From assembly GCA_017625615.1 (NCBI GenBank), contig JAGAKP010000064.1, forward strand, positions 608-64,607: a DNA stretch of 64,000 nucleotides, read 5' to 3'. Positions 37,479-60,589 of this stretch are shown in pieces. The notes beneath the pieces are model-generated. The model searched no databases, had not been told where the DNA came from, and saw only the letters and a list, made by a program, of their open reading frames with translations. Source of the DNA: Clostridia bacterium. GTDB taxonomy: Bacteria > Bacillota > Clostridia > Oscillospirales > CAG-382. The translations under genes were made by a program, and so were the position numbers. The first letter of the stretch is position 1. Each line of letters starts with the position of its first letter.

Positions 37479-38332
37479 TGAATGCATTATTCGGCCCCGG
37501 CGGCAACTGTGATGAATTTGCGAAAAGCGGCTTGAAGGGCACTCTTTTCGCGCCCCAATGGGTAAAGGCTTACGGTCTTGACGCATACGAATACGAGGCG
37601 GGCAGAGGTATACACACGTCTCCCGCAATGCTGGCGGAAATAGGCGATAACGCCCGTAGCCTCGGCGTGAAAATGTCATTTCATACACCGTATTTTATAT
37701 CTCTTTCCTCGGTGGAGAGAGAAAAGCGTGTAAAAAGCGTGGGCTATATAATGGAATCTGCCGCCGCGTCACAGCTTTTGGGTGCGGAAACCATGGTGGT
37801 CCATTGCGGCTCCTGCGCCAAAATAAGCCGTGAAACGGCTATGGAATACGCCACCGAAACTCTGCTTATGGCAGACAAGGCGTTAAAGCAGGAGGGCTTT
37901 ACCGTAAAGCTCGGTATAGAAACTATGGGCAAGATCAATCAGCTCGGCACTCTTGACGAGGTGCTTACTCTCTGCACTTTGTCGGATAATTTCGTGCCCG
38001 TGGTGGATTTCGGACATCTCAACGCAAGAACTCTTGGCAGTATAAAGGAAGACGGAGATTACGAATATATCTTTGATGAGATCACCCGCCGTCTCGGCAA
38101 GGAGTACGCACAAAACCTCCACTGCCATTTTTCAAAAATAGAGTATACGGGTATGGGCGAGAAAAAGCACCTCACCTTTGAGGATCCCCTTTACGGCCCC
38201 TCGCCTGAAAGTCTTGCGCAGGTCATCGCCCGCAAGGGACTGTCGCCCACTATTATATGCGAATCCGCGGGAACGCAGTCGGCGGATGCAAAATATCTTA
38301 AAGATCAGTATGAAAAAGCAAAAAATAATTAA
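37478..38332 (+). CDS. Xylose-isomerase-like TIM-barrel protein, AP endonuclease family 2 (endonuclease IV-related)
   Basis: 284 aa. FHTPYFISL, VVHCGS, LGIETMG and VDFGHL are the ordered metal-ligand-like blocks of this fold. Confidence 0.55.
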   Translation: MNALFGPGGNCDEFAKSGLKGTLFAPQWVKAYGLDAYEYEAGRGIHTSPAMLAEIGDNARSLGVKMSFHTPYFISLSSVEREKRVKSVGYIMESAAASQLLGAETMVVHCGSCAKISRETAMEYATETLLMADKALKQEGFTVKLGIETMGKINQLGTLDEVLTLCTLSDNFVPVVDFGHLNARTLGSIKEDGDYEYIFDEITRRLGKEYAQNLHCHFSKIEYTGMGEKKHLTFEDPLYGPSPESLAQVIARKGLSPTIICESAGTQSADAKYLKDQYEKAKNN

Positions 38333-38984
38333 GCTTTTAAAAAACGTTTTTCTTGCCCTCGTACTGCTGTGCGCCGTGGGAATACTGGTGCTTTCGGTAT
38401 GTAATCTTACGGTTATATGGTCGTCGGAGGGAGAAATAAACCTTGAAGAAACTCCAAAATGCGACGCAATACTTATCCTCGGCGCAAAGGTCACGGGTGA
38501 TACTCCCTCTGCCATTTTAAGGGACAGGCTGGATAAGGGCTGTGAACTGTACTTTGCGGGAGTGGCGGACCGTATAATTATGTCGGGCGACCACGGCAGA
38601 GTAAATTACGACGAGGTAAACGCAATGAAGGCGTACGCCGTCTCAAAGGGCGTGCCCGAGGAGCATATATTCACCGACCACGCAGGGTTTGATACCTACG
38701 ATTCGGTCTACCGCGCAAAAAAGATATTTCTGTGCGAAAAAATCGTGGTGGTAACACAGCAGTTTCATATAAACCGCGCCGTCTTTCTCGCCTCATCGGT
38801 GGGACTTGAAGCATACGGCGTTACCTGCTCGGAGGAGGGCTACCGTCCCACCCGCTTCACCACCAACGTGCGCGAGCCGCTTGCAAGAGTAAAGGCAGTG
38901 GCAAACGCGGTATTCAAGCCAAAGCCGACTTATCTCGGCGAAAGTATTCCCATATACGGAGAAGCCTCCGCAAGCTGGGATTAA
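38310..38984 (+). CDS. sanA: SanA/YdcF (DUF218) family membrane-anchored protein
   Basis: MKKQKIIKLLKNVFLALVLLCAVGILVL anchor. CDAILILGAKV...RLDKGCELY...IIMSGDHG...YDEVNAMKAYAVSKGVPEEHIFTDHAGFDTYDS. The in-frame ATG at 38310 was chosen over the ORF-track start at 38178. Confidence 0.8.
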   Translation: MKKQKIIKLLKNVFLALVLLCAVGILVLSVCNLTVIWSSEGEINLEETPKCDAILILGAKVTGDTPSAILRDRLDKGCELYFAGVADRIIMSGDHGRVNYDEVNAMKAYAVSKGVPEEHIFTDHAGFDTYDSVYRAKKIFLCEKIVVVTQQFHINRAVFLASSVGLEAYGVTCSEEGYRPTRFTTNVREPLARVKAVANAVFKPKPTYLGESIPIYGEASASWD

Positions 38985-55260: not shown

Positions 55261-55794
55261 CTATATTTCGAGCTGTCCCGATAAAAACATTGCTCCCGTT
55301 GATATTACTTGTTTCTCGGCCTCTGCGGGAGCGGAAAAGCCCTCGGTGCGGAAGGACATTACTCCGCCTACCACGGTGCCGTCCGCCACCACGGGGCAAA
55401 AATGGGATATGCTTCCTTCGCCCGTTTCGGTTATGGATGCGCTTCCGTTTTCCGCCGTGTAGCATTTGCGGGAATCCATCAGCTCGGACAGTGTGCGGGA
55501 TACGTTTTTGCCAAGCACCGCCCGCTTGTCCTTGCCTGCCGCCGCCGTCACGGTGTCGCGGTCGCATACCGCCACGTTAACTCCCGCCGCGCGGGACGCC
55601 GCCTCCGCAAACATAGCAGCACTCTCCCCCACTCCACCTATGGGGGAGTATTTTTTAAATACCACTTCGTTTTCCCGCCCCGTAAATATCTCAAGCATTT
55701 CGCCTTCTCTTATCTTCATCGTACGCCGAATTTCTTTGGGAATAACAACTCTGCCCAAATCGTCAATTCTCCGCACAATTCCCGTCGCTTTCAT
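55261..55794 (-). CDS. spoVT: Stage V sporulation protein T (AbrB-family regulator)
   Basis: MKATGIVRRIDDLGRVVIPKEIRRTMKIREGEMLEIF is almost identical to the B. subtilis SpoVT N-terminus. GAF-like C-terminal domain. Confidence 0.9.
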   Translation of the reverse strand: MKATGIVRRIDDLGRVVIPKEIRRTMKIREGEMLEIFTGRENEVVFKKYSPIGGVGESAAMFAEAASRAAGVNVAVCDRDTVTAAAGKDKRAVLGKNVSRTLSELMDSRKCYTAENGSASITETGEGSISHFCPVVADGTVVGGVMSFRTEGFSAPAEAEKQVISTGAMFLSGQLEI

Positions 55795-55884
55795 ATATAA
55801 AATCTCCTTGTTTTTACAGTTGTGGTGTTAGTATTTGTAAAATCAAGGTGAATTATACAAGCGGTTTGCGTTTGAAATTTTTAT

Positions 55885-55913
55885 TTGCATTGGTGGAAAA
55901 ACTGTGTTATACT
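55885..55913 (+). promoter_or_regulatory. Sigma-A promoter for tdk
   Basis: TTGCAT, 17-nt spacer, TATACT, with TGT just upstream (extended -10). Confidence 0.55.
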
Positions 55914-55964
55914 GTTTTCAGTAAGCTCTGGCAAGCCGCTGTGTGCGGCGGAAAGGACTAAAAA

Positions 55965-56537
55965 ATGGCAAAATTATATTTCAAATACGGCGCGATGGGC
56001 TCATCCAAATCCGCAAGCGTGCTTATTACCAAATTCAATTACGAGGAACGCGGTATGGGCGTGTGGCTGATAAAGCCATCACTTGATACGCGCGACGGTG
56101 TGGGCACCGTCAAAAGCCGCATCGGTCTGGAGGCGGACGGATACGCAGTCACGCCCGAAGCCGACATTTTTGCCGAATTCGTTTCCCGCAAGGATATACA
56201 CGTAATTATTGCCGATGAATGTCAGTTTTTCACCGCGGCGCAGGTGGATCAGCTCCGCCGTATAGTGGACGAATTTGATATCCCCGTTCTTTGCTTCGGC
56301 TTACGCACGGATTTTCTTACTCATCTCTTTGAGGGAAGCCGACGCCTTTTCGAGGTGGCGGATTCTATCAGCGAGATCAAAACCATTTGCTCTTGCGGAA
56401 ACAAGGCTATCGTCAACGCCCGCATAGACGGAGAGGGCAACGTCCTCACCGACGGCGGACAGATCATGATCGGCGGCAACGATTCGTATATCGCTATGTG
56501 CCATAGCTGCTGGAAACGGGCAATAGAAAAGGATTGA
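55965..56537 (+). CDS. tdk: Thymidine kinase
   Basis: 190 aa. YGAMGSSKSA P-loop, IADECQFF, Zn cysteines CSCGNKA...CHSC. Confidence 0.9.
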   Translation: MAKLYFKYGAMGSSKSASVLITKFNYEERGMGVWLIKPSLDTRDGVGTVKSRIGLEADGYAVTPEADIFAEFVSRKDIHVIIADECQFFTAAQVDQLRRIVDEFDIPVLCFGLRTDFLTHLFEGSRRLFEVADSISEIKTICSCGNKAIVNARIDGEGNVLTDGGQIMIGGNDSYIAMCHSCWKRAIEKD

Positions 56538-57068: not shown

Positions 57069-57104
57069 TAAAAACCAAGCGGAGTGAATTTTCACTCCGC
57101 TTTT
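57069..57104 (+). repeat. 36-bp direct repeat, copy 1; contains an intrinsic terminator hairpin (57079..57104)
   Basis: TAAAAACCAAGCGGAGTGAATTTTCACTCCGCTTTT. The stem is GCGGAGTGA/TCACTCCGC followed by TTTT. Identical to 59040..59075. Confidence 0.9.
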
Positions 57105-57118
57105 GCGTACAATGGTAA

Positions 57119-57157
57119 TTTACTTTTTGATTTGTATATGGTATTATTAACTATAAT
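57119..57157 (+). promoter_or_regulatory. Candidate promoter(s) of the TIR gene within the cassette
   Basis: AT-rich 76-nt upstream region. Either TTTACT, 17-nt spacer, TATTAT (with TGG upstream), or TTGATT, 19-nt spacer, TATAAT. GGGAGGG RBS at 57170-57176. Confidence 0.4.
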
Positions 57158-57180
57158 AACAAAAGTTATGGGAGGGCGCT

Positions 57181-59034
57181 ATGAAATATTTTATCAGTCA
57201 TTCCTCAAAGGACAAGTCAGCGGTAGAAAAGCTCGTGGAGATCATGTCGCAGTATGAGCCCGATTCGGTAAACCGCGAAAATCTTTTTTGCTCATCTATA
57301 CCTGAAAACGGTTCGGACTTCAAGGAAGAATTGATATTCAATATAAACGAGAATATCTCCAAGGCGGAGAACATCATTCTGGTCATTACCGAAAGCTACC
57401 TGCGCAGCACTTATTGCTTTTATGAAATGAGCATTGCACGATACCTGAAGGCGGCAGACCGGAAGATAATTCTCATAGTGTCAAACGAATCCATAGCCTC
57501 CCGTATCGACGATATTTTCCCCTCCAAGGCGTTTTTGCATATTAACGCCGAAACGGAGATCGCTTCGGAAACACTTGCCGCTTCTCTTGGGTTTAAAACC
57601 GATTTCAAACCGTTTTTCTCTTCTTTGACGGGCGTAAAAGCGCCTGCGGTGCCGTATATCGGAATGCCGCGTGACGCTTACGCACTTAAATATAAATTCA
57701 TTGAAGAGTACGGTGTTGAAAAAATCGGGTTCGATTATCCCTCAACTCCGGACGAGGTTGAGAAAAAGCTTCAAAATGCGCGGGAGATATACTTTGTTTC
57801 CACTACGGGCAGCGGCTTTTTGAAGACTTACAAAGATATTCTGACCTCTTGCGTTGCAAGAGGAAGCGACCTTCGCCTGGTAATCGGCGATAAAGGTTCC
57901 GCCTTCAGCTCAGACGTTGCGGAAATAGAGGCTTTTGACGGTGATTCCGTTCGCAGTCAGTTAAAGAAAAACAACGAGTTGCGTATTGAAAGCGAATTTT
58001 TGGCTACCTTTCAATATCTTAACGAAATATACGTATCTTCCCGTAACCAAGCCTCGGCGGGCAAGATATACTGCGGGTCAAGCTATACCTTGATTCGCCA
58101 GACCGCCTTTATCGCGCGGAACAAGGACGGCTCCTTGTGGGGTTGGATCACCTGCACCATGCCTCCCGTAAGAAGCGCCGACAAGACTCCTTCCGTGGTT
58201 TTTGAGGGAGATCTTAACAATACTCTTGTAAACGACGTGTGGAAGTATGCTTCGTCTTTGTTTTCCTTGTCAAAGCATAAGGGCAGCGTCGTGGAGATCG
58301 ACGGCACCACTCCTCCCGAAAGGCTTGATTCGAGCGATATGGGCAAAGGATTTTCCGAAACGCTGGAAAGATACGAGTCGTATTGGCGGGAACGCTATAA
58401 AGCGGCGCAGGACTATATGGAAACGAAGAACGATTTGTTTGACGGCGTGCTCATAGAGGTTGCCGCTCAGCATCCTCTTAAAAACTGTAGAGTGCCTAAC
58501 AAAGAGTTTGAGGCAAGATTAAACCGCGCGATAGAGCTTTACAACAAGTATACCGCCGACGGAGAAGAGGTTTCCGTTTACGTGCCGGGCAGCCGCCATA
58601 CCTTCAACGGAGTTGCGGACGAGGTGTCATTAAGCGATGCAGGCAGGGAATATCTTGTTGGAAAGGGAATCCCCAAAGAGCGTATTTTTGGTGATGACGC
58701 CAATTTGCAGTACAAAGGCGTCCACGGCGTGTATAATTCGGCAGACGAGTGCTTCGTTGCTTCGGAGATATTTAAAAACGGACAGTTTGGACGGCTTGTG
58801 TCCGTGTGCTCTCCCAATCAGATAATGCGCAAGTCGATGCTGTACGTTGAGTTTGGATGTATTCCTCTCTGCTACGGAGTTACTACCGAAAAAATGTACC
58901 ACAAAAACGTCGTTAACGAAATTTTCGGTTCTCTCAACCGCGTGCTGTACACAGACCATTCCTGGCAGGACGAAAACAGCGATTGGTTCAAATATTTTCG
59001 CGAGACCCGAAGACCGAAATCGGAAGATGAATAA
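57181..59034 (+). CDS. Three-module TIR-domain protein: N-terminal TIR, unassigned middle module, C-terminal DUF218/YdcF-like domain
   Basis: 617 aa. TIR: MKYFISHSSKDK...NIILVITESYLRSTYCFYEMSIA, with a candidate catalytic Glu at residue 82. C-terminal: RLNRAIELY...VYVPGS...SLSDAGREYLVGKGIPKERIF...LVSVCSPNQIMRKS parallels the SanA gene at 38310. No TM or signal peptide. Confidence 0.75.
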   Translation: MKYFISHSSKDKSAVEKLVEIMSQYEPDSVNRENLFCSSIPENGSDFKEELIFNINENISKAENIILVITESYLRSTYCFYEMSIARYLKAADRKIILIVSNESIASRIDDIFPSKAFLHINAETEIASETLAASLGFKTDFKPFFSSLTGVKAPAVPYIGMPRDAYALKYKFIEEYGVEKIGFDYPSTPDEVEKKLQNAREIYFVSTTGSGFLKTYKDILTSCVARGSDLRLVIGDKGSAFSSDVAEIEAFDGDSVRSQLKKNNELRIESEFLATFQYLNEIYVSSRNQASAGKIYCGSSYTLIRQTAFIARNKDGSLWGWITCTMPPVRSADKTPSVVFEGDLNNTLVNDVWKYASSLFSLSKHKGSVVEIDGTTPPERLDSSDMGKGFSETLERYESYWRERYKAAQDYMETKNDLFDGVLIEVAAQHPLKNCRVPNKEFEARLNRAIELYNKYTADGEEVSVYVPGSRHTFNGVADEVSLSDAGREYLVGKGIPKERIFGDDANLQYKGVHGVYNSADECFVASEIFKNGQFGRLVSVCSPNQIMRKSMLYVEFGCIPLCYGVTTEKMYHKNVVNEIFGSLNRVLYTDHSWQDENSDWFKYFRETRRPKSEDE

Positions 59035-59039
59035 CAGCA

Positions 59040-59075
59040 TAAAAACCAAGCGGAGTGAATTTTCACTCCGCTTTT
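59040..59075 (+). repeat. 36-bp direct repeat, copy 2; contains an intrinsic terminator hairpin (59050..59075)
   Basis: Identical 36-mer to 57069..57104, followed directly by the REP doublet. Confidence 0.9.
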
Positions 59076-59160
59076 ATTATCGGGGTCCCCAAGAAGCCGC
59101 AAGGCTTCTTGGGGTGATTATCGGGGTCCCCAAGAAGCCGCAAGGCTTCTTGGGGTGATT
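59076..59160 (+). repeat. REP-like hairpin element, 41-bp unit in tandem (2 copies)
   Basis: ATTATCGGGGTCCCCAAGAAGCCGCAAGGCTTCTTGGGGTG appears twice. 12-bp stem CCCCAAGAAGCC/GGCTTCTTGGGG with a GCAA (GNRA) loop. Confidence 0.9.
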
Positions 59161-59163
59161 TCT

Positions 59164-60432
59164 TTATATAACGACCGTGTTGAAGGAGCGGGGGGAAAGT
59201 ACGATGCTTTCTCCGCCCACGGTTACGGTCTTTTCAAATTCAAAGGGGTTTACTATCACTGCCGCGATGGTTCCGTCGGGGTTTCTGAAGGCGGTGGTGT
59301 TGGAGCTCATTTCTCCCGTTACCTCAAGAAGGACCGCGCCCTTTTTAACGAAGTGGGAAAAATGCTTCATCATATAAAACTCGGGGTTATATACCGCTTT
59401 GCCGTCCTTTACGGATATAAGTGAGTTTTGCTTCCAACCCCACGTGCTGGTGGCGCCGCTTTTAAGTGCCATATTCCAATATACGTTTGCCCGTGCGCCG
59501 TTGTGGGTGTAATGGTGAATGAGATGGCACAGATACATTGCGTAATCCCAGGAGTTCTCACCGTCACCGCACTGACATTCGCTTTGAATGATATCAAGGT
59601 CGGGGAAGTCCTCCTTCGCCTGCATAACGGCGTATTTTCCGTTCCACTGGAACGCCGCTCCCTTTACGCACTTTCTTAATTTTTCGTTTTGCATAAGATA
59701 TCCCAGATATTCGCCGTGCAAGCCGAATTCGCTGTAGGGGTCGGGACCGTTACAGGTGCCGTAATACAGGTCGGCAAGTCCTTCTATCTTGTCTGCCAGA
59801 CAGCACATAAAGCTTTCCAGCTCCTTGGGGTCAAATACGCAGGAAGGGAACTTCTGGTCCGCGAAAATCTCGTTTTGCGGGCAGACTGCGGCTATTTTAA
59901 TATTCTCCTTGGCGTATTCCTCCAAAAATCTTCTGAAGTAAACGGCGTACGCCTTAAGATTTTCCTTCGTCTGCACCAGCCTGCCGTAGTTGTACGCCTT
60001 GGGAAACTTCATCCACGTGGGCGGACTCCACGGTGAGGCAAAAAAGCGTATTTCGGGGGAGCGCTCCTGCGCCTTTTTGACGGCGGGGATAATATATTTT
60101 CTGTCTCTGTCTATGGAAAAATGCTCCATAGCGTAGTCGCCTTCGGTTTCGTTGTAGCTGTACCAGCTTTCCGCAAAATCGTTTGCACCGATGGAAAGAC
60201 GGCAGTATTCAAAGGCGCACCCATCCTCGGAGAAAAGCTCGTCAAAGGCTTTTTCGCGCTCGTTTTCCTCCATTTCAAGAAGTGCCGCCGCGCATATCTC
60301 GCTTATACAGCAGCCCCAGCCGAACAAGGGCTTGCCTTTTTCTTTTCCTATTATTATTTCCGTTCCCTTTTGGGATGATGTCACGGTGTTTTTTATCCAT
60401 TTATTCTTTTCGTCAGAGCTGATAACGTACAT
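59164..60432 (-). CDS. Glycoside hydrolase family 30 (glucosylceramidase / xylanase-like)
   Basis: FASPWSPPTWMK and PQNE blocks are typical of GH30. ATG at 60432 has AAGGAG 6 nt upstream. The ORF track starts at 60450. Confidence 0.8.
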   Translation of the reverse strand: MYVISSDEKNKWIKNTVTSSQKGTEIIIGKEKGKPLFGWGCCISEICAAALLEMEENEREKAFDELFSEDGCAFEYCRLSIGANDFAESWYSYNETEGDYAMEHFSIDRDRKYIIPAVKKAQERSPEIRFFASPWSPPTWMKFPKAYNYGRLVQTKENLKAYAVYFRRFLEEYAKENIKIAAVCPQNEIFADQKFPSCVFDPKELESFMCCLADKIEGLADLYYGTCNGPDPYSEFGLHGEYLGYLMQNEKLRKCVKGAAFQWNGKYAVMQAKEDFPDLDIIQSECQCGDGENSWDYAMYLCHLIHHYTHNGARANVYWNMALKSGATSTWGWKQNSLISVKDGKAVYNPEFYMMKHFSHFVKKGAVLLEVTGEMSSNTTAFRNPDGTIAAVIVNPFEFEKTVTVGGESIVLSPRSFNTVVI

Positions 60433-60589
60433 AACGGTCTCCTTAAACATACGGATTTACGACATTATATCACAAAGCGGCGTGAAAAGTAAAGCGGTTT
60501 GCGTTTTTGCCATAATGATATATTATAGGTGCGGGATACGTTGCTTATATGTGTAAAACGTTGAAAAAACTGTTTTTTGAAAAGTGCTA

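Follow-up and report, generated by a model that had tools for sequence, protein, structure and literature searches.

The window analysed here is a 64,000-nt stretch of contig JAGAKP010000064.1. Its open reading frame (ORF) at 57181..59034 (+) starts with ATG and encodes a 617-aa protein in which an N-terminal TIR domain, a middle module with a phospholipase D (PLD)-like fold and a C-terminal DUF218/YdcF-like module are joined in one chain. On computational evidence, we consider it reasonably likely that this gene is a stand-alone, single-polypeptide anti-phage protein of the abortive-infection type, combining a sensor with a NAD+-depleting TIR. NAD+ depletion by TIR domains is already known; what is probably new is the sensor, for which we know of no earlier description in a TIR-effector protein of this type. 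The initial annotation, made from the sequence alone, had suggested that sensor and TIR effector share one polypeptide, and computation strengthens this reading: the same middle and C-terminal modules are coupled elsewhere to DUF4062/NIR, deoxyribosyltransferase-like, transmembrane (TM) and winged-helix (wHTH) N-termini.

Residues 1-140 (57181..57600, +) carry a TIR domain by profile match, predicted to act as a NAD+ glycohydrolase effector. Pfam TIR_2 (PF13676) matches residues 4-103 with 31.6 bits (gathering cut-off 28) and is matched in 32 of 34 family members (best E-value 1e-11). The motifs on which the TIR had first been called (FISHSSKDK, NIILVITESYL and RSTYCFYEMSIA) are present in this region. 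The top PADLOC profile is spbK (1.1e-11, 42.7 bits), with a match restricted to the TIR (query residues 2-85 against positions 150-229 of 308), while ThsB profiles score more weakly (<=26.8 bits). A sequence search of the PDB returned SpbK chain 9phb (3e-5) as the sole significant solved-structure relative. In this alignment E82 (codon 57424-57426, +) falls on chain residue 216, S8/S9 on S121/S122 and Y78 on Y188; allowing for a 24-residue construct offset, we take chain residue 216 to be SpbK E192. In the SpbK study an E192A mutant was made, and E192, S121/S122 and Y188 were modelled around NAD+ (PMC12847820). All 32 TIR-bearing homologs (32/32) retain E82, along with F4, S6, H7, D11, T70 and R75; E82 supplies the conserved Glu in the alphaC region (xCxxE) by which TIR NADases are recognised. 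The earlier choice of Glu82 as candidate catalytic residue is thus supported by both alignment and invariance.

The middle stretch had been described as lacking any nameable motif, and residues 152-383 (57634..58329, +) indeed match no family in Pfam, NCBIfam, PADLOC or PHROG scans; a PDB sequence-profile search gave spurious low-complexity matches only. An AlphaFold2 (AF2) model based on a 22-sequence alignment (predicted local distance difference test score, pLDDT, 89.8) was compared with the PDB using Foldseek. PLD-superfamily structures accounted for 15 of the 18 best-scoring matches, with E-values of 3e-4 to 3e-2, probabilities of ~0.9-1.0 and TM-scores of only 0.32-0.41. These matches include bacterial PLD, NgoAVII R, the FAM83 pseudo-PLD, the sugar-binding/C-terminal domains of TrmB and TrmBL2, vaccinia F13, PPK1, NucT and Zucchini. 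The catalytic HxK(x)4D (HKD) motif is absent from the module, which has no invariant His or Lys across the family. At the corresponding place the strand reads LRQT, with R306, Q307 and T308 invariant; T208, T209, E250, T326 and P329 are the other invariant residues. We read the module as a non-catalytic domain of PLD-superfamily fold, predicted to bind a ligand or act as a sensor. A likeness to DUF5919-type modules, suggested in the initial annotation, did not survive: no DUF5919 profile match was obtained for the query (E<=10) or for the 34 members (E<=1), and a literature search gave no support.

The C-terminal module, residues 394-617 (58360..59034, +), consists of a long helix followed by a Rossmann-type domain that runs to the stop codon. 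No other part of the protein is as well conserved: mean column identity is 58%, and ~44 columns, many of them polar, are invariant. Its conserved blocks are LIEVAAQHPL, YVPGSxH, SLSxAG, GVYNSADEC, CSPNQxxRK and DHSWQ. Pfam DUF218 (PF02698) matches residues 442-565 with 24.5 bits, just under the gathering cut-off of 27.6; the profile is matched in 23/34 family members at E<=1 (best E-value 2.1e-6), and precomputed tables list PF02698 for few relatives only. A DUF218/YdcF/SanA fold at residues ~420-600 had been proposed from blocks shared with a SanA encoded in the same window, and hhalign of the C-terminal profile against this SanA (38310-38981) recovered the same blocks (89% probability, E 2e-6, 123 columns). 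The reference protein (38178/38310-38984, +) is a SanA-type DUF218 protein with an N-terminal TM helix and an ordinary envelope-type architecture.

The AF2 model of the C-terminal module (pLDDT 95.5) matched a viral YdcF family protein in the BFVD library using Foldseek (E 1.7e-7, TM-score 0.56/0.69, root mean square deviation 3.9 Å), together with three more DUF218 matches. The Foldseek matches listed from the PDB are generic Rossmann folds (LmbT, ALDH, ShosT; best E 0.017) with no DUF218/YdcF-family entry among them, the fold being recovered in the viral model library alone, and a PDB sequence-profile search with the module gave no match. The structurally similar viral proteins are YdcF/DUF218-fold proteins of giant viruses (Edafosvirus, Marseillevirus, Megaviridae) and a Synechococcus phage (BFVD entries A0A3G4ZZ27, A0A879R232, A0A481YW40 and A0A5J6VMX6). 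These profile and model comparisons suggest a DUF218/YdcF-like domain that is soluble, divergent and equipped with distinct pocket residues. It shares fold and motif positions with the DUF218/YdcF/SanA/ElyC family (PF02698), but lies below the Pfam cut-off and carries subfamily-specific motifs (LIEVAAQHPL, YVPGSxH, GVYNSADEC, CSPNQxxRK). In contrast to the canonical DUF218 proteins SanA and ElyC, which act in envelope biogenesis, the domain is cytoplasmic rather than membrane-anchored, is fused to a TIR and has no associated envelope genes.

An exhaustive profile search with the middle module identified 326 representatives (E<=1e-3) in 1.84 billion proteins. The pseudo-PLD and DUF218 pair is a small, unnamed family, in which the N-terminus varies. 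Classes of N-terminus were counted among the top 150 of the 326 representatives: 58 carry a TIR and ~48 a single TM helix, the latter comprising 34 proteins classed as TM and 14 with short N-termini, which were assumed to be TM since short N-termini read in related loci contain a TM helix. At least 24 carry a DUF4062-like domain, with Pfam DUF4062 scores of up to 88 bits in proteins from Streptomyces and Pyrinomonadaceae. Further types are nucleoside-2-deoxyribosyltransferase-like N-termini, recognised by sub-threshold Pfam matches (Nuc_deoxyrib_tr-like), and a Trans_reg_C winged helix, the wHTH members of which include P0032 and L033. Effector swapping on a constant sensor is a hallmark of defence systems. 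Because TIR, DUF4062, deoxyribosyltransferase-like and TM N-termini interchange on a constant module, we assign the N-terminus as effector and the PLD-like and DUF218-like modules as sensor.

The DUF218-like module is either fused behind the PLD-like module or encoded by the next gene. The two-gene form, an effector plus PLD-like protein followed by a DUF218-like protein of ~225 aa, was found in Streptomyces, Kitasatospora, Pyrinomonadaceae, Anaerolineales and Collinsella. There are at least 732 clusters of stand-alone DUF218-like proteins, all annotated as hypothetical; the most abundant of them (P0114, 151 data blocks) is preceded by a 240-aa TM plus PLD-like gene, in a locus flanked by IS21-type and mutator-type transposase genes. 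A stand-alone DUF218-like gene (~230 aa, 47% identical to the window module) also occurs in cyanobacteria, 5 nt downstream of a gene encoding 570-605 aa (L074 8124-10636, L075 8226-10642). Pfam has no match for this upstream gene, nor could a PLD-like domain be detected in it; the idea that the 605-aa partner hides a cryptic one was rejected (hhalign probability 0.1%). The 570-605-aa protein may represent another type of partner for the DUF218-like module.

Full-length TIR-type relatives share 29-66% identity with the window protein (tblastn best segments), with the exception of a near-identical copy at 99% (P0001). Their hosts are gut and rumen Clostridia, Erysipelotrichales (Solobacterium), Bacilli and two Bacteroidota metagenome-assembled genomes (MAGs), and all are unnamed or hypothetical. 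The family as a whole is patchy across Bacillota, Actinomycetota, Bacteroidota MAGs and other phyla; no match was found in 50,697 phage records, and no PHROG corresponds to it. One relative from a cultured strain, WP_013483453.1 of Ruminococcus albus 7 (L100 8539-10236; ~565 aa, 37.5% identical over residues 190-613), is probably of the wHTH type, judging from its resemblance to L026. Its replicon is pRUMAL01, a mobilizable megaplasmid of 420 kb, on which parAB, mobC, IS200/IS605 genes and a PIN/Phd toxin-antitoxin pair lie nearby. Two further loci, each lying downstream of a gene resembling tRNA (uracil-5)-methyltransferase, differ from the window cassette in that a short ORF (66 aa, L096 7795-7995; 89 aa, L098 7724-7993), for which Pfam gave no match, terminates 5-7 nt ahead of the TIR-PLD-DUF218 gene.

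The gene itself was found exactly as first described, a 617-aa ORF whose product is predicted to be cytoplasmic, with neither TM segment nor signal peptide (maximum Kyte-Doolittle 19-mer score 0.93), unlike SanA/ElyC. The promoter, ribosome binding site (RBS) and terminator attributed to it were likewise located, the promoter and terminator calls being consensus pattern matches only. A promoter-like site with a TG-extended -10 (TTTACT-17-nt spacer-TATTAT, 9/12 matches in a consensus scan) lies inside the cassette at 57119..57147 (+), and an RBS (GGGAGGG), separated from the ATG by 4 nt, was read at 57170..57176 (+). The terminator hairpin of the gene at 59048-59073 is followed by a T-run and is identical to the hairpin at 57077-57102, which a terminator-like scan identified as that of the 174-aa gene upstream. 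Between the window allele and a strain allele ~97% identical to it (55 changes over 1851 nt), 45 codons differ synonymously and 9 non-synonymously. With a resulting ratio of non-synonymous to synonymous polymorphism (pN/pS) of 0.055, the gene is under strong purifying selection and hence a real gene rather than a chance ORF.

Both terminator hairpins lie within a perfect 36-bp direct repeat (TAAAAACCAAGCGGAGTGAATTTTCACTCCGCTTTT), whose left copy at 57069..57104 (+) includes the terminator hairpin of the 174-aa gene and whose right copy at 59040..59075 (+) includes that of the TIR gene. The two copies are 100% identical, are spaced 1971 bp apart and form the boundaries of a cassette with a single ORF, in keeping with the stand-alone gene originally proposed. 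This site was compared among contigs with a thymidine kinase identical in sequence to that of the window and ~97-100% DNA identity in this region, which we take to be strains of the same species. It is occupied in the window, L081/L085, L089, L090 and L091, and empty in L086, L087 and L092, in which the 174-aa gene and one repeat copy are directly followed by the GH30 gene. The alignment break points between occupied and empty strains coincide exactly with the repeat. A segment of 1,971 bp, comprising one repeat copy, the promoter and the gene, is thus precisely gained or lost within the species, consistent with the earlier expectation of a variable location rather than a conserved operon. Recombination at the terminator repeats is a plausible route.

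The 26-nt hairpin core was found singly in four otherwise unrelated metagenome contigs (L106-L109, JAEIGA01...), and in L108 it lies between convergent ORFs, as expected of a bidirectional terminator. We therefore regard the hairpin as a common terminator of this lineage and reject a dedicated, cassette-specific attachment site. Flanking direct repeats were not found around four other homologs, so the repeat is specific to the locus in this species and is no family-wide feature. Foreign origin could not be supported by composition, the GC content (42-50%) being not clearly different from that of the flanks. In the L090 allele (L090 3659-5512) a TAA-type nonsense change occurs at codon 3 (Y3*); the gene may have been naturally inactivated because of its cost, or this one metagenome contig may contain a sequencing error. 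The "596-aa unknown protein" in L090, considered as alternative cargo, proved to be the same TIR gene with the nonsense codon 3. Re-initiation at Met22 in this allele would remove the first TIR strand.

A second variable spot neighbours the cassette ~1.3 kb upstream (55755-55965), between spoVT (55261-55794, -) and tdk (55965-56537), and is empty in the window. At this spot L086/L087 contain a 3.9-kb insert (L086 1818-5854) that encodes a 1110-aa thioester-domain (TED) adhesin-like protein; the 5' end of spoVT is duplicated over 64 nt (80% identical) at the flanks of this insert. In L090 (1-2238) an Abi_2 abortive-infection gene and a 240-aa ORF are located just upstream of tdk. Given the adhesin cargo, a pure defence hotspot was rejected. 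Downstream, a second GC-rich hairpin (CCCCAAGAAGCC-GCAA-GGCTTCTTGGGG) is present as a perfect tandem duplication (2 x 41 nt) at 59076-59157, between the right repeat and the convergent GH30 gene (59164-60450, -). The same hairpin is present at the empty site (L086 7142-7225, one copy diverged) and is hence not part of the cassette. In another species, a 64%-identical homolog (P0006; L083 7303-9860) adjoins, divergently, a spoVT/abrB-type gene. The window has its spoVT-type gene ~1.4 kb upstream; this parallel may be fortuitous or the trace of an insertion neighbourhood once common to both.

The initial annotation had asked whether homologs sit in neighbourhoods enriched in defence genes, and here the outcome is modest. 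Two ORFs on each side of 32 TIR-type loci were scanned (114 ORFs; raw counts with no background rate, some of the loci being interrelated), yielding four further TIR_2 proteins, Csn2, IetA, HEC-06, PDC-S05, PDC-S23, mad2 and Fic. One locus, L098, has a TIR-STAND protein and a ThsB-like TIR within ~6 kb. The association with defence genes is suggestive. Most homologs examined are lone genes among housekeeping genes. The statement that no described system joins TIR with DUF218 agrees with our literature searches, which found no paper in the searchable library linking DUF218 or YdcF with TIR or phage defence; apparent matches for DUF218 and phage defence actually concerned DUF2188, matched by word start.

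SpbK, the best-scoring TIR relative, is an abortive-infection TIR NADase of Bacillus subtilis ICEBs1 that is activated by the SPbeta portal protein YonE (PMC12847820). Like the window gene, it is a single gene on variable DNA, with sensor and TIR in one chain. The two differ in architecture: SpbK has a small N-terminal, portal-binding sensor and a C-terminal TIR, whereas the TIR of the window protein is N-terminal and its ~470 aa of PLD-like and DUF218-like sequence lack similarity to the SpbK sensor. The window protein thus does not have the SpbK architecture, and similarity is limited to the TIR. Thoeris ThsB likewise has a TIR with a conserved Glu and gives weak profile matches, but its scores lie below those of SpbK, and the window cassette has one ORF with no separate ThsA-type effector gene.

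A second point of comparison is provided by DUF4062/NIR, for which experiments have recently demonstrated the role of a TIR-like NADase effector in defence (10.64898/2026.05.01.722283, 10.64898/2026.09.04.749371, 10.64898/2026.06.25.731849). Systems with a DUF4062 NADase effector comprise Swarozyc, Evangelion, Avs2, Vulcan and Vesta (2026 preprints), and Swarozyc (DUF4062 plus AUX) assembles on a phage portal. These systems resemble the window protein in combining a TIR-like NADase effector with a variable auxiliary sensor, and relatives of the window protein carry DUF4062 instead of TIR on the same sensor module. The window protein itself has a canonical TIR and no DUF4062 match in a Pfam scan at E<=10. 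The auxiliary parts are otherwise distinct: a portal-binding AUX in Swarozyc, a short unannotated C-terminal segment in Evangelion, HEAT repeats in Vulcan, and in Vesta an uncharacterised domain with an alkaline-phosphatase partner. The Swarozyc, Evangelion, Vulcan and Vesta papers do not mention a PLD-like or DUF218 module. In layout, the split Actinobacterial form ([DUF4062-PLD-like] plus [DUF218-like]) mirrors Vesta (VstA/VstB), with its [NIR plus ligand-binding domain] and [alkaline phosphatase]. From sequence, predicted structure and comparative genomics we class the window protein as one that would work like the single-protein sensor-NADase systems of the SpbK, Swarozyc and Vulcan type, yet belongs to none of these: it resembles SpbK in the TIR only, lacks DUF4062 and is not accompanied by a ThsA-type partner gene.

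Two more remote comparisons concern the sensor. In Metis (MisA/MisB/MisC; 10.1101/2025.11.05.686725), which senses m6dAMP, MisB destroys a basal signal and the effector can be a NAD+-degrading enzyme or a TM protein. The likeness is one of analogy and not homology: a conserved small-molecule-processing enzyme is paired with a ligand-sensing effector, and the split layout is like MisA/MisB, but the folds are entirely different (PUA plus calcineurin-like phosphoesterase; HAD phosphatase). TrmB (PDB 2f5t, 3qph, 5bpd) offers a non-catalytic PLD-superfamily ligand sensor fused to a winged helix, a relation at the fold level only (E ~1.5e-3, TM-score ~0.4). In TrmB the parts come in the order also seen in the wHTH members (among them P0032, L033 and probably R. 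albus WP_013483453.1); TrmB has neither a DUF218 partner nor a TIR.

We infer the following model for the NADase activity, the phage trigger and its nature, and the way in which the two C-terminal domains share the work. The N-terminal TIR would be the effector, silent until infection; upon activation, probably by oligomerisation, it would cleave NAD+ via Glu82 and starve the infected cell. The HKD-less PLD-fold and DUF218/YdcF-like domains would form the sensor/regulatory unit that holds the TIR off. The most likely trigger would be a small metabolite, phosphorylated or nucleotide-like, and not a phage protein, with the pseudo-PLD domain binding this metabolite and the enzyme-like DUF218 domain either co-binding it or turning it over. 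By analogy with MisB in Metis or VstB in Vesta, the latter could provide a safety catch. A small-molecule trigger is favoured because ligand-binding or enzymatic folds underlie both sensor domains, because the DUF218-like pocket residues are invariant across phyla, and because the PLD fold serves as a sugar sensor beside a wHTH in TrmB, as arranged in the wHTH members; the resemblance of the split-gene layout to Vesta and Metis points the same way, as analogy rather than evidence. A more specific version can be held only tentatively, and we give it a low but realistic probability: the pseudo-PLD and DUF218 pair may be a new small-molecule surveillance module, in which the PLD domain binds an infection-derived phosphorylated or nucleotide metabolite and the DUF218 enzyme removes basal ligand, thereby gating interchangeable effectors.

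In favour of an abortive-infection protein we count the closeness of the TIR to SpbK with its invariant E82, the interchangeable N-termini of the family, the presence/absence polymorphism, the L090 nonsense allele and the Abi_2 gene next door in L090, the low pN/pS, the TrmB matches that parallel the wHTH members, and the defence-type genes flanking some TIR-type loci, as well as, by analogy, the split layout matching VstA/VstB and MisA/MisB. Several observations weigh on the other side. Most homologs examined are lone genes among housekeeping genes and not part of dense defence islands; the adhesin in the adjacent spot indicates a region that is generally plastic and not defence-specific; the wHTH variants have no obvious killing effector; and the PLD-fold assignment rests on modest TM-scores (0.32-0.41). 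In Clostridia, some stand-alone DUF218-like genes directly follow dnaD/dnaC-like genes or argS, with no PLD-like partner (L047 7624-10675, L053 3005-5549), contexts that may hint at a role of the module outside conflict systems. Finally, SpbK, the closest TIR relative, and Swarozyc both sense a portal protein.

The last point makes a protein trigger, as for SpbK and Swarozyc, a serious rival, albeit one that we judge unlikely. In this case the effector would be the same and the C-terminal unit would directly recognise a phage structural or replication protein, its folds being scaffolds with no enzymatic role. Loss of HKD from the PLD-like domain is in line with such a scaffold, as are the activation of SpbK by YonE (PMC12847820) and the assembly of Swarozyc on the phage portal. 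It is harder to reconcile with the ~44 invariant columns of the DUF218-like module, in which H, S, D, E, C, N, Q, R and K abound and which are retained across phyla in relatives down to ~30-35% full-length identity, since such invariance is typical of a catalytic or ligand pocket and not of a fast-evolving recognition surface. Furthermore, a wHTH is among the outputs coupled to the module, an arrangement shared with the ligand-sensing TrmB regulators, and its DUF218-like part is separable into a small gene. A function outside immunity appears quite improbable. The protein could be an accessory metabolic or regulatory enzyme, for instance in nucleotide/NAD or envelope-precursor turnover, or a selfish toxin/addiction-type module, as might be suggested by the mostly housekeeping neighbours, the stand-alone DUF218-like genes adjoining replication or tRNA-synthetase genes, the envelope roles of SanA and ElyC and the non-defence cargo of the adjacent variable spot. 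Yet the protein is cytoplasmic and has no TM segment or signal peptide, and the N-terminal repertoire (TIR, NIR, nucleoside deoxyribosyltransferase-like, TM) is that of conflict-system effectors. The precise within-species gain and loss, the nonsense allele, the patchy distribution across phyla and the location of relatives beside transposases, or on a megaplasmid beside toxin-antitoxin and partition genes, also argue against a non-immune role.

Thoeris-like signalling in cis would invert the roles assigned here, the TIR making a cyclic ADP-ribose (cADPR)-type or ADP-ribose (ADPR)-conjugate signal that activates the PLD-like/DUF218-like part as effector. The weak ThsB profile matches fit this scheme, as do database descriptions that give DUF218/YdcF folds small nucleotide-like ligands; E. 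coli YdcF is reported to bind S-adenosylmethionine. We nonetheless consider it very improbable. No known killing activity can be assigned to an HKD-less PLD fold or to DUF218, and the TIR position is taken in relatives by TM helices and NADase-type DUF4062, which behave as effectors and not as signal generators. Fusing the generator to its receptor in one chain would also defeat signal amplification, and the SpbK match (42.7 bits) exceeds those to ThsB (<=26.8 bits).

The sensor sets specificity in TIR-based abortive infection, and the sensor of the window protein appears to be undescribed. DUF218 (SanA, ElyC, YdcF) is a large family whose biochemical function has long resisted study. Tied to an NADase whose output is easy to assay, a soluble DUF218 subfamily would make it tractable to learn what the domain binds or converts. 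The natural presence/absence strains and the megaplasmid relative in the cultured strain Ruminococcus albus 7 provide direct experimental handles. By joining canonical TIR and DUF4062/NIR NADases on a common sensor, the family further presents a natural system for effector exchange. If the pair does prove to be a small-molecule surveillance module, this would be the first biochemical and immune role for a DUF218-fold domain, and would define a new multi-effector defence family.

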